From an uncultured Candidatus Saccharibacteria bacterium (GTDB lineage: Bacteria; Patescibacteriota; Doudnabacteria; UBA920): 64,000 nucleotides of DNA. Position numbers and translations under genes: made by a program. Positions 32,686 through 60,411 of this stretch are shown here, in pieces. The notes beneath the pieces were generated by a model. The model did no database searches, was not told where the DNA came from, and worked only from the letters and a program-made list of their open reading frames with translations. The stretch spans positions 26,181-90,180 of the forward strand of contig CAYSUI010000003.1 of assembly GCA_964434195.1 (NCBI GenBank). The letters run 5' to 3'. Each line of letters begins with the position of its first letter. The stretch's first letter is position 1.

Positions 32686-34156
32686 TTTCAGGCATACCGA
32701 GCAGTTCGCAAACCATTGGTGCGACATTTGAAAGTCCGCCTTTTTTTATTGGATAATTTTTTAAAGTTATGAAAATAGGAATTGGGTTACTTGTGTGAGC
32801 GGTGTGTTTCCCGCCTTCGTGGATTACTTTTTCTGCGTTGCCGTGATCGGCTGTTATTACCAATACTCCCCCACCCTCCCCCACAACGTCATAGAGCCTT
32901 TTGAGTTCTTTGTCTAGAACCTCGATGGCTTTAACTGTAGCTTCGAAATTTCCTGTGTGACCAACCATGTCTGCATTGGCGTAGTTAATAAATAAAAAGT
33001 TAGTACCTTTTTTTATGTATTCAATTGCCTTATCTGTAATTTCTTTAGCTTTCATTTCTGGAGCTTGGTCGTGAGTGGCAATATCTTTTCTGCTTTCTAC
33101 TAAAACCCATTCTTCGCCGGGTGATTTGGTTTCGTTGCCTCCATTTAAAAAATATGTGGCGTGGGCGTATTTTTCGGTTTCGGCGATGTGAACTTGGGTT
33201 AGGCCTGCATGAGAAATTTTTGTAGAAAGTGTATCATTTAATTTTTCTGGAGGAAATGCAATTAGAACCTCTTTAAACTTTTCATCGTATTCTGTAAGAT
33301 TTGCAATTTCTAAGTTGTATTCCTGTTTTCGATTTAGAACGCGACTGACAATTTGCCTCATTCTATCGGGTCGGAAATTAAAAAAGAATATAGCGTCGTT
33401 TTGTTCTATACCGATTGTCTTTCCTTCTGCATCTTTAATAATATGTGGTTCAAAGTGCTCGTCGCTGAGTCCCTGTGCGTAAAGCTCCCTTGATAACTGA
33501 GAGGGTTTCTTAAATTCGCAGACGTTGCCCTTACAGTGGAAAATTGCGTCCTCGACTTTTTGTATTCGTTCCCAGTTGTTATCGCGATCCATGGCATAAT
33601 ATCGGCCTTGTACACTAGCTATTGCCCCTACGCCTTCTTTTTCTAAAAAGTTTTCTAACTCTTCTAAATACTCGTGTCCACTTTGAGGAGGCAAGTCTCG
33701 TCCATCGGTGAAGGCGTGAATAGCAATTTTAGTAATACCTAGTTTCTTAAATGCGATAACTAAAGCGTGTAGGTGTTCCTGATGGGAATGCACTCCCCCA
33801 GGACTAACCATACCCGCAAGATGCAAAATGGAGTTATTATTTAAAACATGCTCAGCTATTTTCTTTACCGCCTTATTTTCTTCGAGTTCATTATTTTCTA
33901 TTGCTTTAGTTATCCTGACTAGATCTTGATACAAAACCTTACCTGCACCAATAGTCATATGACCAACTTCACTGGAACCTATTTGCCCCTCGGGAAGACC
34001 CACGGCTTCCCCACTAGCCTCTAGGGGGCCCCATGAATAATTATTTTTTATGTAATCAAAAAATGGGGTTTTTGCTTGGGCAATAGCATTACCCTGGATT
34101 TCTTCGCTATATCCGAAACCATCTAATATAACTAGAACAACATTTTTATATTTCAT
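32672..34156 (-). CDS. gpmI: 2,3-bisphosphoglycerate-independent phosphoglycerate mutase
   Basis: N-terminal VVLVILDGFGY, metal-binding residues and the overall roughly 500-aa iPGM layout. Confidence 0.9.
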   Translation of the reverse strand: MKYKNVVLVILDGFGYSEEIQGNAIAQAKTPFFDYIKNNYSWGPLEASGEAVGLPEGQIGSSEVGHMTIGAGKVLYQDLVRITKAIENNELEENKAVKKIAEHVLNNNSILHLAGMVSPGGVHSHQEHLHALVIAFKKLGITKIAIHAFTDGRDLPPQSGHEYLEELENFLEKEGVGAIASVQGRYYAMDRDNNWERIQKVEDAIFHCKGNVCEFKKPSQLSRELYAQGLSDEHFEPHIIKDAEGKTIGIEQNDAIFFFNFRPDRMRQIVSRVLNRKQEYNLEIANLTEYDEKFKEVLIAFPPEKLNDTLSTKISHAGLTQVHIAETEKYAHATYFLNGGNETKSPGEEWVLVESRKDIATHDQAPEMKAKEITDKAIEYIKKGTNFLFINYANADMVGHTGNFEATVKAIEVLDKELKRLYDVVGEGGGVLVITADHGNAEKVIHEGGKHTAHTSNPIPIFITLKNYPIKKGGLSNVAPMVCELLGMPETIQS

Positions 34157-34247
34157 GACTCTTGATATTTTTTAGGTTTTAATTTATAGTTTATGCGTCG
34201 CAGTCAAAAGTTCTTTATTACTAAATTTTATAAGCTTAAGCACATAA

Positions 34248-34511
34248 ATGCCAAATACTAAAACAGCCAAGAAGGCCATGCGCCAGTCTGAGAGACGCCG
34301 AGTAACAAACCTTAAGACCAAAAATAAACTAAAAGTCGCGGTTAAGACAGTACGCAAAAATATAGATGCCAAGAATTCTGCAACTATAGCAGAAGATCTT
34401 AAAAAGGCTTTCTCTGCTCTAGACAAAGCTGCAAAGAAAGGTGTCATTCATAAGAATACCGCTGATCGTAAAAAAAGCAGACTAGCAAAGGCTATAGCCA
34501 GGATTAAATAG
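34248..34511 (+). CDS. rpsT: 30S ribosomal protein S20
   Basis: MPNTKTAKKAMRQSERRR... basic helical protein, 87 aa. Confidence 0.85.
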   Translation: MPNTKTAKKAMRQSERRRVTNLKTKNKLKVAVKTVRKNIDAKNSATIAEDLKKAFSALDKAAKKGVIHKNTADRKKSRLAKAIARIK

Positions 34512-34522
34512 TCACATAAAAA

Positions 34523-34555
34523 ACACCGAGCAAATTTGCTCGGTGTTTTCTTTTC
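34523..34555 (+). terminator. Intrinsic terminator
   Basis: 12-bp stem ACACCGAGCAAA/TTTGCTCGGTGT followed by a T-rich tract. Confidence 0.85.
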
Positions 34556-34581
34556 AAAAAAAATAACCCTAATATGAGTTA

Positions 34582-34815
34582 CTATACTTTTTGAGATATT
34601 AGAACTAAATACTCTTCTGGTTTGGTCCACTCTGAAAATACTAAGATTCCTTCTTTTACCTGGTTAATAATAGTCGTAAGGAGTTCTTTTTCTTCTTTAA
34701 TTTGGCAATTAAGTAAATACAACTCTGCATCTTTTACGAATGAAATAGATGCCGCGGTTTTACCTAATTCCCACTCAAAACCAGATGGCGGTACAACTCC
34801 TGTCTTTTTCTTCAT
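34582..34815 (-). CDS. Hypothetical small protein, 77 aa
   Basis: ORF only. No motif. Confidence 0.4.
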   Translation of the reverse strand: MKKKTGVVPPSGFEWELGKTAASISFVKDAELYLLNCQIKEEKELLTTIINQVKEGILVFSEWTKPEEYLVLISQKV

Positions 34816-34899
34816 AATCCTCCTAGATAGCTGAATTTTAAACTAATATATACTATAAAACATTCCGGCCAAATAAAAAATCACCGTTGCTGGTGAATT

Positions 34900-35829
34900 C
34901 TACTTTACGATCGGCGTATTACTAGCAAGCCTTGCCCAGAAACCTTCTTCCCCGGCGAATAGGAGCTCACCCTTTTCGAAACGCTTACCTGACTTTCCTT
35001 TTCCTATTGATACAGCATTGTCTGTGAACACCGAGTTAAGCCTAAGCTTGTAGGCTTTTCTGTCTTTCTGACTTTCTGCACTTTCAATACTGTAACCCAG
35101 AAAAGAATAACCGGTAAGCTCTGACGGGTCATAGAAGTAAACCTGAATATAGAGTGGTTCCAGTTTGTTTACTGGTTCAGGTTTTTCTTGGGGTTCCATC
35201 TTGAAGTTTCGAACAATAGACGGCTCTCCTGGAGAAAGGGTATTTTTTACATCTTCCTCTAGCAGTTCGTATACCGCTTTATCTATCTCGGTAACTTTCC
35301 CTTCTTTATTTACCCAGGAGTAGATAATTTCCGGTTTCAATTTTTCTTTTACCCAGATCCCGCACCAAGCTGGTTTGTAGTAAGGAAAGCTAGGTGTCGA
35401 CTGCGTGGTTAGACCCCAGTCAACTGAGTCTTCCTCGGCGAGCGAAGTATACTGCTGCTTTGTGACTCGAAATTTTCCAACTTCCGGCGCAAGTTTAATT
35501 TCTTTTTCTTGCTCGATTCCCATTTTTTCTTTGATGACGCGAATGGGGTTTATGGTTTTACTCACACCCTCTTTTACATCTTCAATATTTCTTTCGAAAA
35601 AATCCTTAAGGACTGTAGTAATTGGAATCGTATCGGCCGCTAAAACGATTTCGTATTTTTCTTCCTTACGTATCTCGACAACTTGCTCGAGGTCGGGTTT
35701 TGTTACCCCTGCACTCGCTTTTTCGATATAAGTAAGAATTTCTTTTTGATGACCTAGGCACCACAAAGCACCCAAGACTATAGCTATGAACGCCAAGCAT
35801 CTGAGAATAAAGTTCATACTTCCCTCCAC
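34900..35829 (-). CDS. Hypothetical membrane-anchored protein
   Basis: N-terminal TM helix followed by a charged extracytoplasmic region. Confidence 0.5.
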   Translation of the reverse strand: MEGSMNFILRCLAFIAIVLGALWCLGHQKEILTYIEKASAGVTKPDLEQVVEIRKEEKYEIVLAADTIPITTVLKDFFERNIEDVKEGVSKTINPIRVIKEKMGIEQEKEIKLAPEVGKFRVTKQQYTSLAEEDSVDWGLTTQSTPSFPYYKPAWCGIWVKEKLKPEIIYSWVNKEGKVTEIDKAVYELLEEDVKNTLSPGEPSIVRNFKMEPQEKPEPVNKLEPLYIQVYFYDPSELTGYSFLGYSIESAESQKDRKAYKLRLNSVFTDNAVSIGKGKSGKRFEKGELLFAGEEGFWARLASNTPIVK

Positions 35830-35917
35830 ATATATATTTTCTGTTTGAATTAATAGGCAATTGTATATAGAAGTCTGAGTGGTGTCAAAAATAAAAAAAG
35901 CGCAAAATTTTGCGCAA

Positions 35918-36574
35918 TTATTCTTTCTTCACCCTAAGAAGCCTTGCCATAAGAACACCTCGGTCTGCAATCTTTGTTGGTAACTCAATATATTCGATAT
36001 CGCCTGAATTATGTCTTAGACCAAGAAAAACCTTATGACCTACCACATAATTTATGTCACTTGATCTGTATTCGTAATTGAATTGTTTGTCTAATTCGAT
36101 TACTCTCGAGGGCATTTCTACTACCACTGGCTTATTTTGGTAAATCCATAACTGAACCGGTTGAGAATATTCGGGCCAGGTACTTGTAAGCGTAATGGAA
36201 AAAAAATTACCGGACTCGTCTAACTTCACAGTATAATCGAAGCTCTTCTGGTAAATTTGCTTGGGCTCGACTTGGTCTTCTACTCCCTTAAAATTTACTT
36301 GTGGGGGTTTAGTTTCTGGGCTACTTATAAAGCTTGCCTCAGAGACTTGTTTGCTTTCTGAATCAGTCGACGAATTAGCTATTAAATTGAAGAAACTTCC
36401 GACGATTACGAGAATGAAAACAATAACTAAAATCGCCCTATTTCTACCATGTATGTAGGCTTCTTCTTTTTCTGCTTCTGCTTTTTCCTGTGCTTTAGAA
36501 GCAAGATATCTACTATATTGCTCATGTTTTAGGGCTTTTTGCCGCAATTCAGCTGCTGTTTCTTGTCTCCTCAT
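35918..36574 (-). CDS. Hypothetical single-pass membrane protein
   Basis: Charged N-terminus, one TM helix, and a C-terminal domain. Confidence 0.5.
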   Translation of the reverse strand: MRRQETAAELRQKALKHEQYSRYLASKAQEKAEAEKEEAYIHGRNRAILVIVFILVIVGSFFNLIANSSTDSESKQVSEASFISSPETKPPQVNFKGVEDQVEPKQIYQKSFDYTVKLDESGNFFSITLTSTWPEYSQPVQLWIYQNKPVVVEMPSRVIELDKQFNYEYRSSDINYVVGHKVFLGLRHNSGDIEYIELPTKIADRGVLMARLLRVKKE

Positions 36575-36670
36575 TTAGGCCTCCGGGAAAAAATATAAAA
36601 TCTATAAGAACTGACAATACCATAAAATCTAGATAAAAGCAAGGGAAATAAAAAGAGTAGGTTTTTATAC

Positions 36671-38767
36671 CTACTCGCGGGGCCTCAGGGGCACCTTATT
36701 TTCTGCTTCTTGAGGTTTGGCCTCAACCTGAAAAGATACAGACCCACAGTCACCTACCTTATCCTCTGTTCCTTCCAGGAAGAACAGGTCTTCTCCGCAG
36801 ACGTTTCTTTCCACAAGACCCCTATCACTCCCCCAGGAGTTTCCTCCCAAGTGGGGTCGGAGCTTCACGCTTCCGGCTAGTATCCTTAAAGCAATTGGAG
36901 ATGCTGCACCTCCACCTGTAATTTGTTTTGGCATTGGTGAGTTGTCTGTCTTACCGAGCCAAACTACAACCACAAGGTTGGGAGAGAATACAATAAACCA
37001 AGCGTCTTTGTTATCCTGCGTTGTACCTGACTTACCGGCTTTCAAACCTGTATAGAATGCGGCAGACACTGCGCCAGTGCCGCCGGGCTTGAGTGGCCCT
37101 TCTAGGAGATGGCACATAAGCTCGGCTTCATCGGGGTTAATGGTCTGAACTCCGGCATAGGGAAACTCCTTCCTTTCGCCGTTGGTGAGATGCACTGCGG
37201 TTCGAATTAGTTGCGCGTTGGGCAACTTACCTCCGCTCGGGAACATAGAGTAGGCGCGCGCAACTTGGACGACACTAAACAAGTTTGTACCGAGTGCGTT
37301 ACTTAGTACAATAGTCGGCTTGCCGTTTTGCATAGGCCACTTAAATACATCTTTGGTGATGTTGTAAGTACCTTTTGCAACACCGGGCTGATTAAAGAGT
37401 TCTACCGTTACCGGGTTTTTACTCTTTGAGATTGCGGTTTGTATCGAGACAAGCTGACCAGAATAAGTGTCGCCGTAGTTTCCTGGACTGTACACCTGAC
37501 CATTTTCCAACTCGAAGGTTTTTGGTTCGTCCATAAACCTACTCGCTGGGTTCCAGTCGGGAATACCATCGCCGTTGTTGTCTTCTCGAAGTGCAGCAGT
37601 GTAGACGAATGGCTTAAAAGCCGAGCCTAGTTGTCGCTGCATAGTGAAGGGTAGATTGTACGGAACTTTTTGGAAGCCCGTACCTGCAGCTGCCAGAACT
37701 TCGCCAGTTTGCGGTCTCATAACAACAACCGCAACATCTGTTCCCGCTGGGCGATTCTTAATTTCCTGCACAACCAACCTTTGAATATCTGGGTCGATTG
37801 TGGTTTCGAACCTGAATTCTCGAGCGTCGAGTTTTGCTTCTTTTGCTCTGGCCGCGACTGCGCCGGCTACGTATGGAGCGGCGTCGGCGTCGAAACTTCC
37901 AGAGGTTTCTCTGTCAGTTTTTTCGCCCATTGCCTTCACATATTCGCCTTCGCTCACCCAACCGAGTTCTTTAAGTCTTTCTAAGACCCGATTGCGACGT
38001 TTGGTGCCTTCGGTTACAAAATTAGCTTTTTTTTCTGATTCGGTAAGTGCTCGCGGAGCGAACCTTCCGGGACTGCTAATGGCTCCTGCCAAGTGCGCGG
38101 CCTCCGCCCAGCTTAACTGCTTGAGGTCTTTGCGGAAATAAACGAATGCAGCTTGGCGTAAACCTTCGATGCACTGGCCTCCCCAGTTGCCCATGTAGAT
38201 GTTATTCCCATAGGCTTCGAAGATTTGTTGTTTGGAGTAATAGCCTTCCCAAGCCAGGGCGATTTCTGCCTCGGTGATTTTTCGGCCATACGTTTTATCA
38301 GCCTTGCTAAGCCCTCCAACTTTCAGAACAGTTACGAGTTGCTGGGTAAGAGTGCTAGCGCCGGACTGCCTTCCACCGCCAGCATTCCTTAACAGGGCAG
38401 CGATTATTCTAGTCGGAGAGACACCGAAATGCTTTTCAAAATCAGCATCCTCTATTGCCAACACTGCCAAATAGACTAGATTGCTATAATCCGCAAATGC
38501 AGCAGGGTGTACCAAGCAACCTTCCTCGGTAGGAACAGCTTGGTTAATATACCTGTACTCCTCGGGATTATAACCCCCGTTTTCTTTGTTTGGGGCAGCG
38601 AAAATACCAGCCCCAAAACTTCGATCTATGAGTGGAACTTTGGCGACAATTTCTTTGTTCTTCTGGTAATCATTTCCAAAAATTACTCCGAGAACTATTA
38701 GCATTAGCACCACGAGCCCCAGGATGACTAATAGGATTGTTTTCCATTTTTCTTTCAGAAAATCCAT
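36671..38767 (-). CDS. Class A penicillin-binding protein (GT51 transglycosylase plus transpeptidase)
   Basis: GT51 motifs EDADFEKHFGVS and GASTLTQQLV. Transpeptidase SxxK (SAFKP) and KSGT. N-terminal TM anchor. Confidence 0.85.
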   Translation of the reverse strand: MDFLKEKWKTILLVILGLVVLMLIVLGVIFGNDYQKNKEIVAKVPLIDRSFGAGIFAAPNKENGGYNPEEYRYINQAVPTEEGCLVHPAAFADYSNLVYLAVLAIEDADFEKHFGVSPTRIIAALLRNAGGGRQSGASTLTQQLVTVLKVGGLSKADKTYGRKITEAEIALAWEGYYSKQQIFEAYGNNIYMGNWGGQCIEGLRQAAFVYFRKDLKQLSWAEAAHLAGAISSPGRFAPRALTESEKKANFVTEGTKRRNRVLERLKELGWVSEGEYVKAMGEKTDRETSGSFDADAAPYVAGAVAARAKEAKLDAREFRFETTIDPDIQRLVVQEIKNRPAGTDVAVVVMRPQTGEVLAAAGTGFQKVPYNLPFTMQRQLGSAFKPFVYTAALREDNNGDGIPDWNPASRFMDEPKTFELENGQVYSPGNYGDTYSGQLVSIQTAISKSKNPVTVELFNQPGVAKGTYNITKDVFKWPMQNGKPTIVLSNALGTNLFSVVQVARAYSMFPSGGKLPNAQLIRTAVHLTNGERKEFPYAGVQTINPDEAELMCHLLEGPLKPGGTGAVSAAFYTGLKAGKSGTTQDNKDAWFIVFSPNLVVVVWLGKTDNSPMPKQITGGGAASPIALRILAGSVKLRPHLGGNSWGSDRGLVERNVCGEDLFFLEGTEDKVGDCGSVSFQVEAKPQEAENKVPLRPRE

Positions 38768-38878
38768 TATGCTCCTCCCTTATGAACTAAAAAAGATTGC
38801 AAGTAGAATATGCAATTAAATAAAAAAAACAGACTTTTGTCAAGCCTGATAGTGAATCTTTTATGAGACTCCTTCAAA

Positions 38879-39820
38879 TTATCTTGGGTTAAACATGGGA
38901 GCGACTTCATTGGTTATCTTTAAAACCCTCTGAACATGCAAAATGCTATCGTTATCCGTTCCTCTTTGAAATGAAGGACCGTTCACGTAATTTTTGAATG
39001 CTGACCATTTGGGGTCATTTTCAGGTGGGTAGATAAAGTCCCTAATTGTTGTGGCTCGTGGTGCTTTCGACATTGCGTTCACGAGAGCACTGGGCCCTGC
39101 TTTCCAACCTAACAGCGCAAGATCTTGGGCTTGGGCCCAAGTTAGGGTTGGATACCTGCGTTTTACTCCACTGGCTATTTCACTCAAGTAGCACGAGGCA
39201 AAGAAAGCAGCTTGGTAGAAGTTTCTACGATCGAAGTAAGGTTTGTTGTTTGCATTATAGAATGCATAACCTTTCAACTCAGCTAGTCCACCGTATTTCG
39301 ACACCATACCTTCCCAGGTACCACCGAGGAATTGGAAACAGCCTTGTGCGCTAGTCCCCATCCTGTTACCTATCATACAATTACCGGTGGATTCCTGAAC
39401 CATGGTTGCGGTTAGATGCGCTGGGGAAACTTTTAATCTACCAGTAGCTAGACTTGCGTCTTTACTCGCCTGAGCAAGAGCATCTTCGGGTTTATATGGA
39501 CCCAAAAGAAAATCTACTCGTTTTAATGCGACCGCTGCCTTAGTTCCTTTCGGAACAGCTCTGCTTCCGACGAGTGCTTCTTGGTTACTTGGAGCTGGTG
39601 AGGTTTGGGATTGCCGCGTGGACACTTGGCTTGATTCAGAACCACTGGATCGTGATGTTTCTTTATTGCCCCATCCGCCAAATTTTGAATTTGACCTTGT
39701 ACTGGTTGGAGTTGGAGTGGGTTTAGCAGGTGTATTTTTTCTGATAATAACCTGCTGAGAAAACCCACTAACCGGATAAAAAAAGATTATGAAAAATAAA
39801 AAGACTTTTTTGCCGTTCAT
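38879..39820 (-). CDS. Secreted SLT-like (GH23) lytic transglycosylase with a Pro/Thr-rich linker
   Basis: Signal peptide, PAKPTPTPTST linker, and a catalytic-like ES...GA.G..QF block (VQESTGNCMIGNRMGTSAQGCFQFL). Confidence 0.5.
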   Translation of the reverse strand: MNGKKVFLFFIIFFYPVSGFSQQVIIRKNTPAKPTPTPTSTRSNSKFGGWGNKETSRSSGSESSQVSTRQSQTSPAPSNQEALVGSRAVPKGTKAAVALKRVDFLLGPYKPEDALAQASKDASLATGRLKVSPAHLTATMVQESTGNCMIGNRMGTSAQGCFQFLGGTWEGMVSKYGGLAELKGYAFYNANNKPYFDRRNFYQAAFFASCYLSEIASGVKRRYPTLTWAQAQDLALLGWKAGPSALVNAMSKAPRATTIRDFIYPPENDPKWSAFKNYVNGPSFQRGTDNDSILHVQRVLKITNEVAPMFNPR

Positions 39821-39962
39821 CTAACCTCCTTGAACTGCTTTGGTTTTTATAAAATGAAAGTAAAAAGTAACATGTGACTGTTTAGGTGTCAATTGACACT
39901 TAGCTTAATATTGGTTATTAATAAACATTCTTTCTCATACAAAAAAACGGAGGTAAAAAAAT

Positions 39963-40928
39963 ATGAAGAACACTTGGTTGATAATTTTTCTGGCCCTGAC
40001 TCTAACAGTTTTCGCGGTAGCACAAACCCAGAATAATAAGTTTGGTAGTGTGACCAGGACTAAGGAGTCGGAGCAAGGAAAAGCAACACCGACACCAAAA
40101 GCGATTCTGACACCGCAGAAGCCCAAAGTAAAAGCGAATACTGGAAGTGAGTCGAATGCTAGGAATGGGAACAATCCCTCATCGATGACGAATCCAAACC
40201 CAAATGGAGGTGGTGTAAAACTTTTGCCCAGGTCTACCCCTACTCCCACTCCTACTCCTTCAAGAGAGAATGTTGGAGCCGTGCCGACACCCACTCCGAC
40301 ACCAAACCCTACGCCGGCAATTAAAAAAGTAGCAACCCCCACACCAACACCTACACCCGCACCAGTGACGGACTACACACCAGTATGGCAAAAGTTTGCG
40401 ACAGAAGCAGAAGTCAGAAGCCACAATGTTCTAACAATTGGTAACGGTATTATTACCTCTTACCAAAAAAATAACGAACATGTTGCCGAAGATACGCTGA
40501 GGTCGAGTGGATGTCCTGATACGGATCTTAGGTGCACTTATTTGGCCAGTTACCTGATTAAGAAGTCACTGAATTCGACAACCAGGAAATTTGCTGATAA
40601 ACAGGTAAATAAATTCTTGGACCGATTCACTAAACGAGAAGCACCTAAAAGTATGGGACTATCTTGTGTGAACTGTGAAACGGAATTTAGAAACCTTCAG
40701 GTGGCAGCTTCTATTTCCCTGACCCTTGACCCTAACAGTAAAAGAAGTAAAAAAATCATGAACCAATTGGGGTACTTTTATACCATGAGGTTTGTTGATT
40801 CTAACGGTAAGACCACTCGGGAACCGAATTTACTGAGTGCCAGCGAATGCCTGCTTTCAGGGGATGATGAGAAAACTTTTCAGATCGTCAGGCTCGAGAA
40901 AAATTTCAAAATTGCGGAAATAAAATAG
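39963..40928 (+). CDS. Secreted Pro/Thr-linker protein, cassette copy A1
   Basis: Signal peptide and a PTPTPTPTPS linker. Its C-terminal domain of about 180 aa is paralogous to 41858..42697. Confidence 0.6.
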   Translation: MKNTWLIIFLALTLTVFAVAQTQNNKFGSVTRTKESEQGKATPTPKAILTPQKPKVKANTGSESNARNGNNPSSMTNPNPNGGGVKLLPRSTPTPTPTPSRENVGAVPTPTPTPNPTPAIKKVATPTPTPTPAPVTDYTPVWQKFATEAEVRSHNVLTIGNGIITSYQKNNEHVAEDTLRSSGCPDTDLRCTYLASYLIKKSLNSTTRKFADKQVNKFLDRFTKREAPKSMGLSCVNCETEFRNLQVAASISLTLDPNSKRSKKIMNQLGYFYTMRFVDSNGKTTREPNLLSASECLLSGDDEKTFQIVRLEKNFKIAEIK

Positions 40929-40950
40929 CACACTTACGTGTGCGTTTTTT
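40927..40950. terminator. Bidirectional terminator between the convergent A1 and B1 genes
   Basis: GCACAC-ttac-GTGTGC followed by T7. Confidence 0.75.
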
Positions 40951-41711
40951 TATGGACAATCGCTCTTGAACAGACTCCCTAAAAATCCACACCGTTTTTT
41001 TGCCTGTTCTCGAATTTTTCGATTGGGTTCTGTGATGACTACTCGCTGACAGTAGGCATCGCTCCTGACCCACTGTCCTTGATACCGAATGTACCAATGA
41101 CGGTCAGTACTAATGACACAGCCAGTATCTGGCTCTGATGCAACATCGCTCTGGTTAATTGGCGCTGGTTCGGGTGAAGGAGAAGTGGGGGCTGGGCTTC
41201 TGTTTATGAAACCTTTTTTTGCACTCTCCTCATGTTTTCTAGGTTCGTTCTTTGGTAACGACTGGGGTTGTAATGGGGGCTCTGCATATACCCAACGTGG
41301 TCGTTTCGCGGGTTTTAGATTGGGAGTAGGCGCGGTTATGGGTCTAGTAAATATTACCGTTTCCACAACTTTACTTGAACTCACTTTGTTATACCTAGAA
41401 ACGTTATTCCTCGAAACAACCATAAGCTTTTGTTGCTTTTTTGACTTAGGAGAAACTTCCTTTTTTTCGATTGGAGGCTTCCCCAGGTCTGGGGTGTCTT
41501 CACTCCCCAAAACCACACTGGCTTCTGTGCTATCCATTTCTGGAGTAGCTGAAACCATGGGTGATGGCTCTGGTGAAGGTGTAATGCTTTCTGTATTCAC
41601 GATTTTTGCTTGGTCGCTGGATATGGGAGGCAAATGTGGCTCATTTTGACTCGCGCAACCTGCGAACACTAAAACCGTGGCCACTAAAATGAGTGTGGTT
41701 AATTGTTTCAT
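40950..41711 (-). CDS. Lipoprotein with a conserved Cys-containing C-terminal domain, cassette copy B1
   Basis: Lipobox LVFAGC, S/P/T-rich linker, and a C-terminal DRHWYIRYQGQWVRSD...KKRCGFLGSLFKSDC that is paralogous to 42753..43310. Confidence 0.6.
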   Translation of the reverse strand: MKQLTTLILVATVLVFAGCASQNEPHLPPISSDQAKIVNTESITPSPEPSPMVSATPEMDSTEASVVLGSEDTPDLGKPPIEKKEVSPKSKKQQKLMVVSRNNVSRYNKVSSSKVVETVIFTRPITAPTPNLKPAKRPRWVYAEPPLQPQSLPKNEPRKHEESAKKGFINRSPAPTSPSPEPAPINQSDVASEPDTGCVISTDRHWYIRYQGQWVRSDAYCQRVVITEPNRKIREQAKKRCGFLGSLFKSDCP

Positions 41712-41857
41712 TATTCTCCTTCTTTTTGTGTGTGGAGTTCAGGGATAAAAAATGTACATGTTTTTTAGTGAGCAGTCAATATTTTATTGACACTAATACA
41801 TTTTTACGTTATTAATATACATTCGTTCTAATAGTAAATCTTTATTTGGAGGAACAG

Positions 41858-42697
41858 ATGAATTTCATTAATTACAGGAAAAGTTTCTTTTCGTTGACTG
41901 TTGTTTGTGTTGTAACTTTTGGAATTTTGGCCCAGGAAAAACCTAAATCCAGTGGGGGGGTAAATAAATTTGGAACCATTAAATACGAGAAGGCGACGCA
42001 AAGCCCTAAGCCAAAACCGACGCCGGTGAAAATAATAAAAGCTAATCCTTTAGGTTCGGAAAGCAATCCCAGGGGGCCGATAAACAAACCAACACCGTCG
42101 CCTACCCCTACACCAACACCCAAACCGTCGCCTACCCCTACACCAACACCCAAACCCACACCGTCACCAACGCCAATTCTCAACGATGAAAATGGTTCGA
42201 CTAATAGAGTCAGGGTCGCGGGTACGAATCCATGGACTAAAAATGCTACAAACCAAGAATTTTCTCTAGTAACAAAGTGCGAAGATGTAAATTACAAGTG
42301 TCTCTTTTTGGCAAGCTTTTTGATATCGAATATCCAAAATGAGTTCACTAAAAAATTTGCAGAAGAACAGCTCAAAAAATTCTATGACGAGCGTACGCCA
42401 ATTCAGGAACCTAAAAGAGCTGGCGAAAATTACACTTTGTCGGAAGAAAAAATTCGTGAGATTGAAGTAGCATTAAGTACCTCCTACTTGCTAGATTCGG
42501 AGAGTGTTAGAACTAAAAACTTAATGGAACAACTTGGATTTCTGTTAAGTATGAAAGTAGTGGATAATGAAGGGAATGTTACCCGCGAACCAGACTTAGT
42601 GGGTGCGAGTAAGGCACTTAAGCTTTCCGGAAACACCACTTTCTACAACCTGGTGATGCTTGAAATTGCCAAAAGCGTAGTCGAAAAGGATAAATAA
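41858..42697 (+). CDS. Secreted Pro/Thr-linker protein, cassette copy A2
   Basis: GGAGG RBS before the ATG at 41858. Signal peptide. PSPTPTPTPK repeats. C-terminal domain paralogous to A1. Confidence 0.6.
   Translation: MNFINYRKSFFSLTVVCVVTFGILAQEKPKSSGGVNKFGTIKYEKATQSPKPKPTPVKIIKANPLGSESNPRGPINKPTPSPTPTPTPKPSPTPTPTPKPTPSPTPILNDENGSTNRVRVAGTNPWTKNATNQEFSLVTKCEDVNYKCLFLASFLISNIQNEFTKKFAEEQLKKFYDERTPIQEPKRAGENYTLSEEKIREIEVALSTSYLLDSESVRTKNLMEQLGFLLSMKVVDNEGNVTREPDLVGASKALKLSGNTTFYNLVMLEIAKSVVEKDK
42114..42187 (+). repeat. Perfect 30-bp tandem repeat, two full copies plus a partial third, inside the A2 gene
   Basis: CCGTCGCCTACCCCTACACCAACACCCAAA occurs twice. It encodes PSPTPTPTPK. Confidence 0.8.
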
Positions 42698-42730
42698 AAT
42701 CCCACACTAAAACTTTAGTATGGGATTGCG

Positions 42731-42755
42731 CACACTCACGGAGTGTGTTTTTTTA
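42731..42755. terminator. Bidirectional terminator between the convergent A2 and B2 genes
   Basis: CACACTC-acg-GAGTGTG followed by T7. An additional upstream hairpin is present. Confidence 0.75.
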
Positions 42756-43310
42756 TAAGTCGTTTTGGCGACAACTTTTTTTGAATAAGCCGCCTTTCCA
42801 GAATCCGCATTTCTTTTTCTTGCGAATTTTTTCTTCATTGATAACCGCAGCATTGTCGGTCACACCGGCGGCTTTGGCACATAGATTGTCGTTACGAATT
42901 TGTTGACCGTCTCTTATGATGTACCAATGATTGTCGACACCGAGACGACAAGTCTCCGCGATATTTTTTAATCGTTCCTCATGATAGTCGCGGTCTACCG
43001 TAGCAGAAACAACTTCGTTTGGGTTCAAAGCCGGTTGAGCAACCACAACCAAAGGCGTTGGGGTTACCGATGCACGCCCACTTAGCTGTGGCTCTGCTGG
43101 AACTGAGGGGTCTATGCCAGCGTTGCCGCTTACTGAGCCAAGTGTGTCCGGGATGTCTCCGGACTTTGGGGTGTTCTTTGTCACTGGGGTCCCTGTAGCC
43201 GCAGCCAAACTTGGTATATGCGGCTCGTTCTCGGTTGACTTGCCTCGACATGAAGCCAAAGCAAGGGCCATAAAAATCAAAAAGAAAAGTTTAGCAAACT
43301 TTGTCTTCAT
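42753..43310 (-). CDS. Lipoprotein with a conserved Cys-containing C-terminal domain, cassette copy B2
   Basis: Lipobox LALASC. C-terminal DNHWYIIRDGQQIRND...KKKCGFWKGGLFKKSC is paralogous to B1. Confidence 0.6.
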   Translation of the reverse strand: MKTKFAKLFFLIFMALALASCRGKSTENEPHIPSLAAATGTPVTKNTPKSGDIPDTLGSVSGNAGIDPSVPAEPQLSGRASVTPTPLVVVAQPALNPNEVVSATVDRDYHEERLKNIAETCRLGVDNHWYIIRDGQQIRNDNLCAKAAGVTDNAAVINEEKIRKKKKCGFWKGGLFKKSCRQNDL

Positions 43311-43522
43311 ATCTTCCCTCCATTTTGGTCTAAAGTTTCTGAATTAGTAAGAAGTTGGAATGTACAATAATTTAACCTAATGGTCAATAGCTTTATTGAC
43401 ATAGAAGTGTGTTTTTCATTAGAATCACAAGTTCGGAAGTTTGTGCTTCTGAATACATAGAGTTGTGAGAAGCACGACTCCTCACCGAATTCAAAACTAA
43501 ATTCAAGATGGAGGAATTTTTT

Positions 43523-46090
43523 ATGAATTTGAAATTTCCGAAAATGGATTTTTTCAAAAATATTTCCTGGTTTAGGAAAAAGGACAGGGTAACAGATTCT
43601 GAGCCAAGACCACCTTCGAAACCAATGAAAGAAAAACTGAAAGATTTTCCGTGGAAAAAAGCATTAATAATAACCGCGGTCACGATGGTTGTTATTTTTG
43701 TACCTCCTTGGATTTATTATCTTTCTAGGGCTTCTGAGTTGGAACCTGAGGTGCAGAGCGCCCAGAACACCATTAATGACTTGCGTGGGGTTAGAATTGA
43801 AACTCAAGTGGAAGGCGAAGATGGAAAGCCCGTAGTTGAATACGTGGCTACCTCCACTTCTAAAGCCATGAGGGATGAGAAGAATAACCCGCGGTCGAAT
43901 GTCCGTATGGAGTATAGATACTTCGCGGATATTGATCCTGAATTTCTCACTAGCGTAATTGCTGTTGAAGATGCTAACAGGTCGCGGTTCTACCATATTG
44001 GGGTTGACCCAAGGGGTGTGGGACGGTCTTTACAGCAACTTTTCAATAAGCATATCCGCGGAAAGCAGAATGAAAGAGTGGGTGGCGGTTCGACGCTCGA
44101 GATGCAGATCATGAAGTCTCTCTATCTAAAGAAGGAGAAGACCTTTGATCGGAAAACCGACCAAATGATTATGGCCTACCTTACTTTCAAAAACTATGAT
44201 GAAATGGTTATCCAAGAGATGTATTTCAACATTGTTTATTTGGGAAATTCGGAGGGTCATAGACTTTGGGGGTTTGAGAGCGCGTCTCGTTCGGTGTTTG
44301 GCACCAGCATTAGCGATAAGCACAAAGACCAATGGGCTTATCTTATAGCGACCCTTCCCGCACCGGAGTGCTTGGGCTACTTCCAGTCTAAGTCTTGTCC
44401 TGGTGGGACCGACTGGAAAGCCGAGACACTCAAGCGCTACAACATGGTACTTGGGAAGATGCTTGGAGCTGGGGTAATTAGTCCCGAAGAGCATGAAGCA
44501 TTCAAAGATAACCTGCCTATGATTGGTTCTGTAACTAAAGATAGCGACGCACAGTCGGTACCATTCTTTACGGAACAGACTAAGAAGCAGGTAATGAATA
44601 AATATCCGACCGAACAACTTGGTCGGATTGCTGCTGAGTCTAAGATTGACCCTAAACTCACCCAACTGGCCAGGAATGCTCTTCAAGAGACCCTTGAGCC
44701 ACTGCAGAAACAAGTTGATAATTCACTAATTTTGGTAGTAACTACTCCGGGTGGCAAGAAAACAATTGCCGCTAGGGGTAGGGTGGATATTGAAAAGTTG
44801 CTGAAGAAAGCTACGGTGGCGGAAGGGGCAACCGTGACTCTGGTAATGACCACTAGCCAAAAAGTATTAGCAACAGGCAAGGAGAATATTCAAACACTTT
44901 TGCCCAAGCTACTACTCGATGGGGCGGTGGTGATTCTCGATTCAGCAAGCGGAGTGCCAATTGTCTATGTTGGCGGCTCCAACTACGGCATTGGACCTGG
45001 TCAGTCTCAACTGGACAGAGTGACCGATGGAGCAGATGCGATTGGTTCTATAAAAAAGATCCCAATGGCAATTGCGGCTATCGGAACCAAGGAAGTGACC
45101 GCAGCTAGCTACTTCCCTAACCAACCGGTAATCCCGTGTCGAAGTGGACAAGCTCAGTGTGAACCGTGGCCTAAGAACTTTCATAATTCACCATATGGAG
45201 GCGACATGCCTCTGTGGGATGTAATTAGAAAGTCCATGAATGCCCCGGCTGCGCATCTAGCAATGAAACGAGTGGACGGGAGCACTATCTTGTTCCAGTC
45301 GTTTGAGTTCACTGAAGTACTAGGGATTCCTTTTCCCGACGTAAAGACACTTTCCCCTACTTACGCGCTGGGTATTGAGGCCCTTAGACCTATTCAGGTC
45401 GCAGAGCTCGGTGCACTTATTGCGAACGATGGAATTGAATGGACACCCAGGAGATTCTGGGTTTCGCTTAAGAAAGATGGTGTGAAGGTAGATGAAGTTG
45501 TTAAGAAGTTTAAGCCAAATGAAGAATACCAACAGGCTGTAGTAGCTGTCCGCGAAATTATGCGCTTGGTCGCAAGACCGGGTGGCACTGCGGGTAGACT
45601 CGCTACCACATTTAAAGCTGATCCTTTTCTTTCGACTCAGCTTGCTTGCAAGACTGGTTCGAGCAGACGGACTGGCTGGTTAATGTGCTCTTGGCCGAAA
45701 CACTCCATGGCAATTCGAATTGGCTTCGACGAAGACTTTGGGAAAACGGAACTTACTGGTGGAGGCTCTGCACTGCTAGTGGCCGAAAAACTCCTGCCTG
45801 CTATGAAAAAAGCGAGGCCGGATTTGTTCGACACACAGTGGAAGAGTCCTTCTGAGTATGGTCTTGTTCCTTGCTCTTCTGGAGGTACGGTTGTTTGGCT
45901 CTTACCAGGCACAGAGGGGAAGGCTCCTGGTTGCGGTGAAATATCTGCACCTAGTGAACCCCAAATAGCCGAAAAACTAACAAAAGAGAAGAATAACAAG
46001 CCTTCAGATGCAGAAACCCGTGCTCCTAATGGAGCGGAGAGCATAGCCGGAAAGAAACCCGAAGGGGTTAAACTACAAGCAAGGAAATAA
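43523..46090 (+). CDS. Divergent bifunctional PBP-like protein (GT51-like plus transpeptidase-like)
   Basis: GGAGGA RBS. TM anchor. GT51-like blocks VIAVEDANRSRFYHIGVD and GGSTLEMQIM. Transpeptidase-like SIKK and KTGSS. Confidence 0.65.
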   Translation: MNLKFPKMDFFKNISWFRKKDRVTDSEPRPPSKPMKEKLKDFPWKKALIITAVTMVVIFVPPWIYYLSRASELEPEVQSAQNTINDLRGVRIETQVEGEDGKPVVEYVATSTSKAMRDEKNNPRSNVRMEYRYFADIDPEFLTSVIAVEDANRSRFYHIGVDPRGVGRSLQQLFNKHIRGKQNERVGGGSTLEMQIMKSLYLKKEKTFDRKTDQMIMAYLTFKNYDEMVIQEMYFNIVYLGNSEGHRLWGFESASRSVFGTSISDKHKDQWAYLIATLPAPECLGYFQSKSCPGGTDWKAETLKRYNMVLGKMLGAGVISPEEHEAFKDNLPMIGSVTKDSDAQSVPFFTEQTKKQVMNKYPTEQLGRIAAESKIDPKLTQLARNALQETLEPLQKQVDNSLILVVTTPGGKKTIAARGRVDIEKLLKKATVAEGATVTLVMTTSQKVLATGKENIQTLLPKLLLDGAVVILDSASGVPIVYVGGSNYGIGPGQSQLDRVTDGADAIGSIKKIPMAIAAIGTKEVTAASYFPNQPVIPCRSGQAQCEPWPKNFHNSPYGGDMPLWDVIRKSMNAPAAHLAMKRVDGSTILFQSFEFTEVLGIPFPDVKTLSPTYALGIEALRPIQVAELGALIANDGIEWTPRRFWVSLKKDGVKVDEVVKKFKPNEEYQQAVVAVREIMRLVARPGGTAGRLATTFKADPFLSTQLACKTGSSRRTGWLMCSWPKHSMAIRIGFDEDFGKTELTGGGSALLVAEKLLPAMKKARPDLFDTQWKSPSEYGLVPCSSGGTVVWLLPGTEGKAPGCGEISAPSEPQIAEKLTKEKNNKPSDAETRAPNGAESIAGKKPEGVKLQARK

Positions 46091-46100
46091 CCCAATATAA

Positions 46101-46124
46101 CCTGATTAAGTTCAGGTTTTTTTA
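46101..46124 (+). terminator. Intrinsic terminator
   Basis: CCTGA-ttaagt-TCAGG followed by T7. Confidence 0.75.
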
Positions 46125-46219
46125 TTTGCCCCCAGGTAGTTGACAGAATGGGCGATAATCGGTATTCTCGAGTGTCCTCCCAGTGGGAGAGACTATCAAA
46201 ACAGATGGAGGTATTTAAG

Positions 46220-47659
46220 ATGACTGATGAGACTTTGGATCCGATCAATCCCACTGGAGCTGAGCTGAAAACTGTTGTGGTTCAGGGGAACGGTCGGTCG
46301 GCGGCAAGTGAATCTGGAACCCATGTGCATCGTATGCCGATTAACAGCACTACGATGGGAGCGGAGGCTACACAGCCTTCCTCAATGGTGCAGGTAGCGA
46401 GGTTCGGCTTGGTGACGGCGACACTAGTGTTGGCTTTTTTTGCTTACAAGAGTGGGACCGTTGTTATGTACGTTGCTGCGGGTTTGCTTCTGGTGGCGAC
46501 TGCGGTCACGTTTTTTCTGACCCGCAGCAAAACGGAAGCGAGCATTGTGGGTAAAACTCAACCGGGAGTTGGTACAGTGAAACCGAAAGGCGGATCGAAG
46601 TGGAGCCGTACTTACTGGGTTGAAACCTACGAGAAGAACCCCTCAAAAATTGGGGACATGCTTAAAGGGCTAGTGAAAACTTGTTCTTTCTGGATATGTC
46701 TAATTTGGGGACTTCTGTGGTTTGCACCACTGATGATTTACACCAACGGTCGTACTCGTACCATTCTGGTACTTTTCGATGGCGGACAAGGGTTCTTAAT
46801 TCCCTTGATCATACTGGGGTGCTTTGCGGGAATCTCTATGGTTCTCCACAAAAAAGGAATCCTTGTCCCGGATAAGGTACGTGATCCGCAGACTGGACAA
46901 ATAGTTTCGGACTACAAACCTACGGTTTTCCGAACTGGAATGTTGATTACTGCGGTACTTCTGATCTGTGCATGGTTTCCATCTACGATTAAAAAAATCT
47001 ACGATGATAAACAGGTTGTACAGATTAGAAAACTAACAGGGATATCGGGACTATGGAATAAAAATTCCCACTCGTTCTATACCCCTCCGGAGACATACGG
47101 ACCGAGACCAACGTTTGGTGAATACATTTACTTCCTAAAGCTTGAGCCTTATGACGTAAATATGAAGAGCGTGGGTCTTTCGCGGTATGAAACCGCTTGC
47201 AAGATGTACGGGCACCCTGAGGTACCGAGAACTTGTTTTATACGAGTTCCTCGTTTGCAGATTACAATTGATCTGCAAGGACTCGTGGAACTTAACAACA
47301 AGAACCATCGGGTGAAGGACCTTCGCGAGGAGGAACTTTTCAGAATTGGAGTGATCCTCCAACATCTTGCGAACGTTAAGAAGCAACTCCATTTAAAGAG
47401 TACAGGGGAGGAGCAGGATGAACTGCTTGACAACTGGTTCGCGAAGGCGATTCAAGCGGCTAGAAACACCCCGTTTGGCAACGTTTCGGGACTTTCTAAA
47501 CCGTTCGATTTGCCAGTACATGTTATAAGTGTTCATCCGGATTCGGAGATAAACATCATCAACAACGGTAACGGCAATGAGCAACCCGCTCAGACCGAAC
47601 AACCGCCACCGAATGATGGTGATCCACCGGTACAAGAAAAACCGAAAGACGTTCCTTAA
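46220..47659 (+). CDS. Hypothetical polytopic membrane protein
   Basis: GGAGG RBS before the ATG at 46220. Several TM helices. Elevated GC. Confidence 0.5.
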   Translation: MTDETLDPINPTGAELKTVVVQGNGRSAASESGTHVHRMPINSTTMGAEATQPSSMVQVARFGLVTATLVLAFFAYKSGTVVMYVAAGLLLVATAVTFFLTRSKTEASIVGKTQPGVGTVKPKGGSKWSRTYWVETYEKNPSKIGDMLKGLVKTCSFWICLIWGLLWFAPLMIYTNGRTRTILVLFDGGQGFLIPLIILGCFAGISMVLHKKGILVPDKVRDPQTGQIVSDYKPTVFRTGMLITAVLLICAWFPSTIKKIYDDKQVVQIRKLTGISGLWNKNSHSFYTPPETYGPRPTFGEYIYFLKLEPYDVNMKSVGLSRYETACKMYGHPEVPRTCFIRVPRLQITIDLQGLVELNNKNHRVKDLREEELFRIGVILQHLANVKKQLHLKSTGEEQDELLDNWFAKAIQAARNTPFGNVSGLSKPFDLPVHVISVHPDSEINIINNGNGNEQPAQTEQPPPNDGDPPVQEKPKDVP

Positions 47660-47667
47660 TGGAATAC

Positions 47668-47691
47668 ACAGGACCTAGTCCTGTTTTTTTA
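47668..47691 (+). terminator. Intrinsic terminator
   Basis: ACAGGAC-cta-GTCCTGT followed by T7. Confidence 0.8.
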
Positions 47692-47722
47692 TTAAAAATC
47701 TCCTATATAAAAAATCCCGATT

Positions 47723-48556
47723 TTAGTCGGGTTTTAAAATGGTGTCGAAGTCGGGCTTGGGTGGGTGCGGATCTGGTTCAAGATACATTGTGAACTCTAC
47801 TTGTTCATCTATTACCCAAACCTCGCCTTCCTCTCTGGCATTGTTAAAATTTCCTGAGAGAGATAGAGCCTCTCTTGGAATAACCAGCCAACCGTTTTGC
47901 TGGTCGGGTTTTAGGGTAAGAACATTACCCCTAATTCTATCCGACTTGTTCACATCACCTTCTGCTATTTCAAACTTTTCTTCATCGTTTATAAAGACTC
48001 GGTTCCGAGAAAGCAAATAGCCTAGGTCCAAATGAACATTCCCCAGTAGCTTACAGAGCTCTCTTGTCTCTGGGTGCCTATAACCGCAGACAGCACTCCA
48101 TGGGTCATATAAGCAGTCACCAAGTCCGAGCAATTGAGTTGGCTCATAGTCAGAATTTGCGTCGAACGCATATTCGAATTCTATACCTTCGATCTTTTTG
48201 AACTCTGTGTAGACTAAATGCTGACACACTTGCTTCTCTACCAAAGACTTCCAATTGGCACAGAAGTAAACTTTTTCTTTACCGTCTGCTAACCAGATTT
48301 GGGTAGGGACTCCAGAACCGTTTGAATTCCTGAGATGCATTATCCCTGCGGGCTCACCTCTTTCTCGCTTTAGGACGTAACGGTGAAAACCACCCCAAGG
48401 GATATCACCGTCGAATAGGAATTCCACTGCCCAATATGTGACCTTCAAGCGTGAATCAAAATTAGGGGCGGCTTGAGGAACTTTTAGGAGCGGGGTGTTA
48501 AGTAAAATTCCTCTTGCCTCCCTTAAAACTAAAGAACTGTTTGGCATTTCTACCAT
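47723..48556 (-). CDS. Hypothetical protein, 277 aa
   Basis: AAGGAG RBS 9 nt before the ATG at 48556. The track extension to 48661 runs into the upstream terminator. Confidence 0.5.
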   Translation of the reverse strand: MVEMPNSSLVLREARGILLNTPLLKVPQAAPNFDSRLKVTYWAVEFLFDGDIPWGGFHRYVLKRERGEPAGIMHLRNSNGSGVPTQIWLADGKEKVYFCANWKSLVEKQVCQHLVYTEFKKIEGIEFEYAFDANSDYEPTQLLGLGDCLYDPWSAVCGYRHPETRELCKLLGNVHLDLGYLLSRNRVFINDEEKFEIAEGDVNKSDRIRGNVLTLKPDQQNGWLVIPREALSLSGNFNNAREEGEVWVIDEQVEFTMYLEPDPHPPKPDFDTILKPD

Positions 48557-48650
48557 ATTTCTCACTCCTTGTGTATTTTGCTTTGGACTAGTGCTTGCGT
48601 TGGCAAAAACTAGACCTGAAAACATAGCATAAGCGCTATTTTTAGGCAAT

Positions 48651-48680
48651 AAAAAACCCACACTTGATTCTTAGTGTGGG
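48651..48680 (-). terminator. Intrinsic terminator of the M23 peptidase gene
   Basis: Minus strand reads CCCACACT-aagaatca-AGTGTGGG followed by T6. Confidence 0.8.
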
Positions 48681-48686
48681 ATATAA

Positions 48687-49415
48687 TTATGGCGCATCTA
48701 CAGGATCGTCCATGGGTAAGCTTGAAAATCTAACTGATTTTAGTGGACAAGTGGCACAGGTGCGTTTTTTTACTTCAATGTGGAGATGCGGTCCTGTGAC
48801 CCTACTCCCAGTAGCTCCAACGGTGGCGATATAATCCCCTTCTTTTATTACATCACCAACTTGTAAGGGAACCCATAACTTAGTAACAGGATTCCACTTT
48901 GCGGCGGGTTTGTTGAAATGACAATAAGTGAATTGCCAGCGAGAGTTTTCAAAAATTAATCCATTGCCACAGCGACTGATTCTTCCCCTACCATCTCTCA
49001 GGGGAACTATTCTTTTTACCTCGCCGCTGTCTACTGCTTTTATAGGGGTACCTATTTTGGCTCCGAGGTCGATGGCGCTGGTTCTCCCACCATATTTTCT
49101 TTCATGAGCAGCTTCCCCATGGGTAACCGGCGCACCAGGGAGTGGGTTTGTAAAAGTCCCATCTCCAGTCCTTGAAGTATTTCTACTCGTAGGAGCTGAT
49201 GAAACGGCGAGACGACGAATTTCAGCGATTATTCCGTTTTCGACTTCGGCGTCGGACTTAACTACCCATTTACCGAATCTATTTGAAGAACCAGGTTCCT
49301 GTGGCTTAGAATTACCTCCGCCATTTTTGGTGGGACCGACGACTCTAACCGATTGCGAGAATGCCTGGCTAAATATTAGGGCTAAACCTAAGCAGGTTGC
49401 AGTTAGTTTTCTCAC
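48687..49415 (-). CDS. Secreted M23-family metallopeptidase (LytM-like)
   Basis: Signal peptide. GPHLHIEV HxH motif and upstream His/Asp ligand candidates. Confidence 0.75.
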   Translation of the reverse strand: MRKLTATCLGLALIFSQAFSQSVRVVGPTKNGGGNSKPQEPGSSNRFGKWVVKSDAEVENGIIAEIRRLAVSSAPTSRNTSRTGDGTFTNPLPGAPVTHGEAAHERKYGGRTSAIDLGAKIGTPIKAVDSGEVKRIVPLRDGRGRISRCGNGLIFENSRWQFTYCHFNKPAAKWNPVTKLWVPLQVGDVIKEGDYIATVGATGSRVTGPHLHIEVKKRTCATCPLKSVRFSSLPMDDPVDAP

Positions 49416-49588
49416 CTATTCACCCTCCTTTTTAGAATATATTGCGTAAAATAATTAATAAACTTAGCAGAGGCGGGGGGGAGTGTCAAACCCCACTGCT
49501 AAATATTTTTGACAACAAAGCAATTTTTCTTTATACATAAAGGCTTAATCTATTGAAGATTTTGCAAAACCATAGTGGAGGAAAGCTA

Positions 49589-51285: not shown

Positions 51286-51316
51286 AAAAACCGACCACGG
51301 GGTCGGTCTTTTTTTC
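51286..51316. terminator. Bidirectional intrinsic terminator
   Basis: A5-CCGACC-acgg-GGTCGG-T7. Confidence 0.8.
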
Positions 51317-54757: not shown

Positions 54758-54874
54758 ACTGTCTCCTTATTGTTGATGTTGTTGATTTTGAATTCTTTAT
54801 TTAAATAGATGATTACCTTCCCCTACTTAAATAAAGGGGGGTGACAAAGATTGACTTCGTCACCTCCGAAAGAC

Positions 54875-57253: not shown

Positions 57254-57282
57254 TTTACAAAAATTATAGAGTGTGATATAAT
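57254..57282 (+). promoter_or_regulatory. Sigma-70-type promoter of the first TrmB-like gene
   Basis: TTTACA, then a 17-nt spacer, then TATAAT. Confidence 0.55.
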
Positions 57283-60405: not shown

Positions 60406-60411
60406 TTAGAT

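Follow-up and report, generated by a model that had tools for sequence, protein, structure and literature searches.

The 64-kb window analysed here (64,000 nucleotides of contig CAYSUI010000003.1, from an uncultured Candidatus Saccharibacteria bacterium) carries two diverged copies of a unit of ~1.9 kb arranged in tandem, A1/B1 followed by A2/B2, in which a plus-strand gene for a secreted protein (A) converges on a minus-strand gene for a lipoprotein (B). The four genes are real and constrained and encode exported proteins; the cassette was duplicated as one unit that included the A promoter and the terminators; A forms an orphan family; and a common leader followed by different C-terminal heads ties the A proteins to two wall hydrolases encoded in the same locus. 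A possible reading, which we favour tentatively, is that A and B constitute cognate stalked envelope pairs, with heads in or beyond the wall, working with the neighbouring peptidoglycan enzymes and possibly at the zone of contact with a host.

Duplication of the A/B cassette

The C-terminal domains of A1 and A2 share 40% identity over 129 aa without gaps (BLASTP, E 5e-30), and the C-terminal Cys domains of B1 and B2 share 40% identity over 60 aa (BLASTP, E 2e-12); a second matching patch between the B proteins comprises the lipobox and the motif NEPH[LI]P. The A promoters and the terminator hairpins were duplicated together with the genes. The A promoters, which are copies of each other (TTGACAC-17-TATTAAT, then GTTATTAATA[A/T]ACATTC; the A1 promoter proper being TTGACA-17-TATTAA), correspond to a 31-nt repeat that occurs at 39914 and again, 1894 bp further on, at 41808. 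Both convergent gaps hold GCACAC...GTGTG hairpins whose folding clearly surpasses that of shuffled controls (z -3.4 to -5.5). No further copies of A or B were found in the 64-kb window. An earlier note, made from the letters of this DNA, had described four open reading frames (ORFs) forming two copies of one architecture, with paralogous C-terminal domains; the ORF list agrees with it in the coordinates, and the pairwise alignments give the paralogy its figures. The conservation of the A domain stands as well, and its proposed length of ~180 aa does not, the demonstrable part being ~130-140 aa (A1 residues 184-312).

The stops of A1 and B1 are separated by a single palindromic hairpin that looks like a bidirectional intrinsic terminator. 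The gap between A2 and B2 is organised differently: the hairpin at 42730-42748, followed by T7, serves A2, and the hairpin at 42727-42698, followed by a U-run, serves B2. A single hairpin shared by both strands, as had been proposed for each pair, was found in the first pair, the second having one hairpin per strand. Translation of A2 most likely starts at ATG 41858 rather than at TTG 41846, GGAGG lying 5 nt upstream of the ATG. Three antisense ORFs (39935-40342, 41113-41649 and 41872-42183) were rejected as genes, being Gly/Val-rich mirrors of the P/T/S-rich coding sequence of the opposite strand.

Organisation of the A and B proteins

A1 starts with a Sec signal peptide of the signal peptidase I type, with cleavage predicted between AVA and Q (between ILA and Q in A2; both read from the sequence). 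The signal is followed by a basic, Lys-rich leader with NKFG at residues 25-28 and a GSESN motif, by a P/T/K-rich stalk at about residues 61-145, and by the part conserved with A2 (DNA 40512-40898), which opens with a C-x6-C loop. A2 has the same layout, its conserved domain occupying residues 141-269. Sortase anchoring found no support in either protein: there is no C-terminal LPXTG and no hydrophobic tail, and the sequences end in ...RLEKNFKIAEIK and ...IAKSVVEKDK, respectively. The AlphaFold2 model of the A head is mostly helical and unreliable (predicted local distance difference test, pLDDT, of 45.6, from three usable sequences as input).

The lipoboxes of B1 (...LVFAG-C19) and B2 (...LALAS-C21) conform to the pattern [LVIF][ASTVI][GAS]C and are kept in the orthologues of the relative L001. 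The lipobox of B1 is followed by the motif NEPHLP, an S/P/T/K-rich stalk and a basic head of 56 aa with four Cys (residues 198-253, DNA 40953-41120), and that of B2 by NEPHIP, the stalk and a head which is likewise basic and contains four Cys (residues 121-185, DNA 42756-42950). The four Cys are invariant, with the spacing C-x22-C...C-x10/11-C. The weak matches obtained with B1 and B2 were limited to the N-termini of lipoprotein signal models, and neither lgt nor lspA is encoded in the 64-kb window. The AlphaFold2 model of the B head has an overall pLDDT of 61; its core (about residues 21-50 of the 86-residue query, block-mean pLDDT of 74-82) is a beta-hairpin plus a helix, predicted with moderate confidence. 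The poor quality of the models is due to the shallow alignments. Stalk lengths co-vary within the cassettes, both being long in cassette 1 (~85 aa in A, ~160 aa in B) and short in cassette 2 (~40 and ~80 aa). The description of A as a secreted protein with a signal peptide and a Pro/Thr/Lys linker, and of B as a lipoprotein with an S/P/T linker and a short Cys domain, was confirmed by these features (signals AVA/Q and ILA/Q and P/T/K-rich linkers in A; lipoboxes FAGC and LASC and S/P/T-rich linkers in B).

Selection and conservation in relatives

The same four genes occur in the same order in three relatives (L001, L002 and L003). A close relative shares ~87% DNA identity across the locus, versus ~97% in the nearby iPGM/S20 region, and the codon-level comparison with this ~87%-identical relative provided the omega values. 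Omega is low in all the heads (A1 0.08, A2 0.12, B1 0.15, B2 0.06) and higher in the stalks (0.2-0.44; 0.32 in the A1 stalk and 0.44 in the B1 stalk), indicating that constraint acts on the heads as protein domains, with the stalks as relaxed spacers. Both copies of both genes are kept in a presumably small genome, which argues that each pair is needed. Co-conservation of the pairs, whose absence the earlier note had counted towards a refutation, was observed in the very close relatives; no distant relatives carrying the families were found.

Synonymous divergence from L001 (over 32672-49415) is uneven: 0.09 in iPGM, ~0.3 in the SLT-like gene, A1 and B1, 0.6-0.7 in B2 and the M23 gene, and 1.25 in the A2 head. 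This suggests a mosaic or recombinant history of the locus.

These data bear on an alternative explanation of the cassette, namely that A and B are independent lineage-specific exported proteins which happened to be copied together by one segmental duplication. A single 1.9-kb duplication accounts for the whole pattern, the genes are convergent and independently terminated, their heads show no charge complementarity, and proteins without a family are frequent in the window. Nevertheless, purifying selection has maintained all four genes even though the copies have diverged to 40% identity, which is less likely if the two genes are unlinked, and the co-variation of the stalk lengths also counts against this explanation. 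We consider this explanation rather unlikely.

Family and fold searches

The A and B heads had no significant match in Pfam, NCBIfam, PHROGs or PADLOC (the PADLOC matches fell only in the low-complexity PT stalk), nothing was found in comparisons with PDB sequence profiles, and fold searches, in which the low-confidence models were the queries, returned no match. Neither head matched the known peptidoglycan- or wall-binding domains (LysM, SPOR, PG_binding, SH3b and similar), and the A head showed no similarity to the catalytic domain of the SLT-like or of the M23 enzyme. The earlier failure to assign either domain to a family thus extends to the Pfam, NCBIfam, PHROGs, PDB profile and fold searches, and the match to a well-characterised family that would have spoken against the earlier note did not appear in them.

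With the A domain, the exhaustive profile search, run against 1.84 billion sequences that represent ~15 billion proteins, retrieved A1, A2 and one repeat protein of 2984 aa (P0004, apparently eukaryotic, E 8e-9). The latter was rejected as a homologue, since hhalign gave a probability of 3.7% and the score was the sum of nine weak repeats, a case of repeat proteins inflating whole-sequence scores. A word-index search with the A domain retrieved only a 95% orthologue. The same kind of search with the B-domain profile retrieved nothing, not even B1 and B2, which are both present in the collection; consequently, it was not exhaustive, and the evidence that B is an orphan is weaker than for A. Pattern scans (B in metagenome and viral contigs, A in viral contigs), tblastn against plasmids and phages, and literature searches for the A and B proteins and for the source samples all came back empty. 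The metagenome scan with PBP1A found penicillin-binding proteins (PBPs) 27-35% identical to it, the majority of them on contigs of higher GC; their surroundings contained neither an A or B domain nor a comparable cassette. The head domain families appear to be new, with no detected relatives outside this lineage. Any novelty would lie in these families and not in the kind of system, the architecture being that of an ordinary stalked Sec-exported protein plus a stalked lipoprotein.

A leader motif common to A and two wall hydrolases

A1, A2, the SLT-like protein and the M23 peptidase all carry the motif [NS]-[KR]-F-G; it lies at residues 26-46, placing it 5-25 residues into the mature protein. 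The motif is kept in the orthologues, and none of the other 41 proteins of the window has it at that position. The chance expectation is ~0.015 per protein, and the occurrences are three independent ones if A1 and A2 are counted once. The predicted cleavage directly before Gln is common to the same four proteins, and G-S-E-S to A1, A2 and the SLT-like protein. The leader could be a targeting or retention signal. An inverted leader duplication between the SLT-like gene and A1 was considered and rejected, the sole similarity being low-complexity PT-coding sequence.

A Gln at position +1 (after Ala or Ser) is predicted in six of the ~8 exported proteins of the signal peptidase I type in the window (14005-14511, 38879-39820, 39963-40928, 41858-42697, 48687-49415 and 50654-51274). 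This habit is known from Bacteroidota; where promoters are of the sigma-70 type and Shine-Dalgarno sites are present, as in this genome, it would not be expected.

A shared leader with differing C-terminal cargo (SLT-like, M23 and A domains) resembles polymorphic toxins, and A and B could be a secreted effector and its immunity lipoprotein, with A acting as a toxin on the envelope of a competitor or host, B neutralising it at the outer face of the producer's membrane, and the two cassettes representing two specificities. In favour of this, each A gene adjoins its B gene, and the two were copied and have diverged jointly. The narrow distribution of both families is also common among effector and immunity genes, and divergence is faster in the locus than in housekeeping genes (nucleotide identity of 87% versus 97%). 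The arrangement is nevertheless atypical: immunity genes are normally downstream, co-directional and co-transcribed, whereas A and B are convergent and have their own terminators, and a stalk of 80-160 aa bearing a 60-aa head is unusual for an immunity protein. Furthermore, there was no match to a toxin or immunity family (Pfam, NCBIfam, PHROGs, PADLOC), the A heads are under strong purifying rather than diversifying selection (omega 0.08-0.12), the SLT-like and M23 genes have no partner lipoprotein, and the family scans of the window found no dedicated secretion system. An effector/immunity function is, in our opinion, unlikely.

Peptidoglycan genes and promoters flanking the cassette

Table 1 Positions of the cassette genes, their terminators and promoter regions, and the flanking peptidoglycan genes in the 64-kb window.
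Feature	Position	Strand	Remarks
Class A PBP (PBP1A)	36671-38767	-	698 aa; Pfam Transgly (GT51) and Transpeptidase
SLT-like lytic transglycosylase	38879-39820	-	313 aa; signal peptide, PT stretch, SKFG and GSES leader motifs
Divergent promoter region, SLT-like gene/A1	39821-39962		back-to-back -35 boxes TGTCAATTGACA at 39887-39898
A1	39963-40928	+	321 aa, ORF; paralogue of A2
Palindromic hairpin GCACACTTACGTGTGC	40928-40943		between the A1 and B1 stops; U-runs on both strands; z -3.6 and -3.4
B1	40950-41711	-	253 aa, ORF; lipoprotein
Divergent promoter region, B1/A2	41712-41857		palindrome GTCAATATTTTATTGAC at 41775-41791
A2	41858-42697	+	279 aa from ATG 41858; mechanical ORF from TTG 41846, 283 aa
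Two adjacent hairpins	42698-42748		between the A2 and B2 stops; z -5.0 and -5.5
B2	42753-43310	-	185 aa, ORF; lipoprotein
Divergent promoter region, B2/second class A PBP	43311-43507		palindrome GTCAATAGCTTTATTGAC at 43383-43400
Second, divergent class A PBP	43508-46090	+	860 aa; GT51 Pfam match; SIKK, SMN and KTG read from sequence
Secreted M23 peptidase	48687-49415	-	242 aa; Pfam match; NRFG leader motif

The cassette lies within a cluster of peptidoglycan genes (Table 1). The SLT-like protein matches the PHROG transglycosylase profile phrog_4067 (E 1.2e-10, residues 126-259), has a readable catalytic Glu-Ser motif (...MVQESTGN...AQGCFQF...) and matches phiKZ gp144 weakly; there was no Pfam SLT match, indicating a divergent member, and the only homologues found were itself and an 89% orthologue. 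The 860-aa PBP has no Pfam transpeptidase match. With 24-29% identity, the two class A PBPs represent old paralogues. In both, the C-terminus carries a Cys loop in which [FW]L.GTE.K...CG stands between two Cys; PBPs of 33% identity on metagenome contigs terminate in a similar loop (F.LGTEP...CG). Between 34900 and 49415, every gene with a recognisable feature encodes an envelope protein, and the unassigned genes mostly have transmembrane segments. Pfam and PHROG matches, together with the motifs, identify the flanking genes as they had been named before (class A PBP, SLT-like transglycosylase, divergent PBP-like protein and M23 peptidase). The general claim of an envelope role is supported by these neighbours, from the signal peptides and lipoboxes, and from the shared leader.

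Back-to-back TTGAC -35 palindromes are present in the three consecutive divergent intergenic regions of Table 1 and are the sole such sites in the 64 kb. The promoters of the window are of the sigma-70 type, with GGAGG ribosome-binding sites; the window also encodes FemAB and Mur ligase genes, and no outer-membrane families are among its Pfam matches. The gene content and the promoter features presumably fit a monoderm bacterium belonging to the candidate phyla radiation (CPR). Rfam and tRNA scans of the window were empty.

A further alternative casts B1 and B2 as Lpo-like cofactors whose heads would bind to and control either the class A PBPs, of which the locus has two, or its hydrolases (SLT-like and M23), A being an additional accessory factor. 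The lipobox, long disordered linker and small globular head match the LpoB type; Lpo-type activators are lineage-specific inventions; and the locus has two B genes for two class A PBPs, B2 sharing its divergent promoter region with the second PBP. On the other hand, no similarity to LpoA, LpoB, LpoP or any Lpo family in Pfam/NCBIfam was found, a long stalk would not be needed in a monoderm, where the PBP and the lipoprotein are in the same membrane, and the PBPs are ancient paralogues (24-29%) that were not duplicated along with the cassette. This alternative also leaves A, and the joint duplication of A and B, unexplained, and we regard it as improbable.

Other features of the window lie further from the cassette. 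The 218-aa membrane protein encoded at 35918-36574 (charged cytoplasmic N-terminus, one transmembrane segment and an external domain) is the product of a locally hypervariable gene, with 50% identity to the orthologue of the close relative, compared with ~89% for its neighbours. Genes for a RhuM/Fic-domain protein (51316-52329) and a truncated patatin-like protein (52430-53113) adjoin a jump in GC to 0.526 (54001-56000), which spans two large ORFs without a family match (53615-54757 and 54875-56998); the segment 51316-56998 may be an acquired island. Two genes for TrmB-family regulators (57218-58141 and 60394-61173) are ~2.3 kb apart, with a GNAT-like gene between them.

Proposed function of the A/B pairs

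The cognate-pair reading starts from the layout of the two proteins. A is secreted by Sec, with cleavage predicted before Gln, and consists of a basic leader, a Pro/Thr stalk and a head of ~140 aa, modelled as mostly helical, with the C-x6-C loop. B is predicted to be lipid-anchored in the cytoplasmic membrane; NEPH[LI]P lies proximal to the membrane, and a disordered stalk (80-160 aa) carries the basic four-Cys head of ~60 aa. The stalks would place the heads of A and B within or beyond the cell wall, where the A and B of one cassette would be cognate partners, B serving A as a partner or receptor tethered to the membrane. In wall remodelling, possibly at host contact, the pairs would cooperate with the two class A PBPs, the SLT-like transglycosylase and the M23 peptidase. 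The surface display via stalks, the binding between A and B, and the link to wall remodelling or host contact are steps that we infer. The divergent promoter regions shared by the SLT-like gene and A1, by B1 and A2, and by B2 and the PBP gene speak for this interpretation.

Several observations weigh against it. A segmental duplication copies neighbours regardless of functional linkage. The genes of each pair are convergent and hence not co-transcribed. The head charges are +8 in A1, -4 in A2 and +6 in both B proteins; complementarity between the A and B heads was accordingly rejected, the charges not complementing each other consistently. The structure models (pLDDT 45.6 and 61) are too poor for defining a binding surface, no known anchoring motif was found in A, and the leader motif has no known function. 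No relatives distant enough for a co-conservation test were found. The monoderm, epibiotic context is presumed from the taxon label. Finally, the M23 gene also has back-to-back -35 boxes in its promoter (49484-49514), in a looser and wider-spaced version; the palindromes of the divergent regions were thus rejected as a dedicated operator, the back-to-back TTGAC(A) boxes reading as a compact promoter layout and not as a proven shared operator.

A bolder version, in which the cassette is an undescribed two-component envelope module of an epibiotic CPR bacterium (effector and immunity proteins at the host interface, or monoderm analogues of Lpo that control the two class A PBPs and the hydrolases) and the leader is a new targeting or retention signal, seems to us quite doubtful.

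CPR bacteria, Saccharibacteria among them, are attached to bacterial hosts, and many of the proteins that they export have no assigned function. If the cognate-pair reading is true, the locus would hold two constrained surface proteins, encoded as a compact and duplicated pair, that are integrated into a cluster of peptidoglycan synthases and hydrolases. They would be concrete candidates for a role in the remodelling of the cells' own wall or that of the host, and the leader motif could also serve to recognise further wall-targeted proteins. If A and B are merely lineage-specific orphans, they add another case to the many exported CPR proteins without annotation, of limited general interest. 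Proteins without an assignable family are common in CPR genomes generally, and this frequency tempers the interest of the cassette; the tie to the peptidoglycan cluster and the shared leader raise it somewhat.

Comparison with known systems

B1 and B2 resemble LpoB and LpoP of Gram-negative bacteria in the lipobox, the disordered linker, the small head, the restriction to a lineage and the location in a locus with two class A PBPs; they differ in having no sequence match to them, in the presumed anchor in the cytoplasmic rather than the outer membrane, and in the ~60-aa head with four Cys. With polymorphic toxins and other effector/immunity pairs, A and B have in common that they are adjacent, co-duplicated and of narrow range, and that a leader is shared with other enzymes; unlike those pairs they are convergent, have no toxin, immunity or trafficking domain, show no diversifying selection and are ordinary Sec substrates.

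The neighbouring SLT (family 1) and M23 enzymes are like A in the cleavage before Gln and in [NS]-[KR]-F-G, the SLT-like protein also in GSES and the PT stretch, whereas the A head has no similarity to either catalytic domain. The remaining likeness is with the Pro/Thr-linker surface proteins and stalked lipoproteins of Gram-positive bacteria, which also combine a signal peptide or lipobox, a low-complexity stalk and a head; compared with the wall-spanning proteins of that group, A is without LPXTG or another known anchor, and the heads of both A and B belong to no described family.

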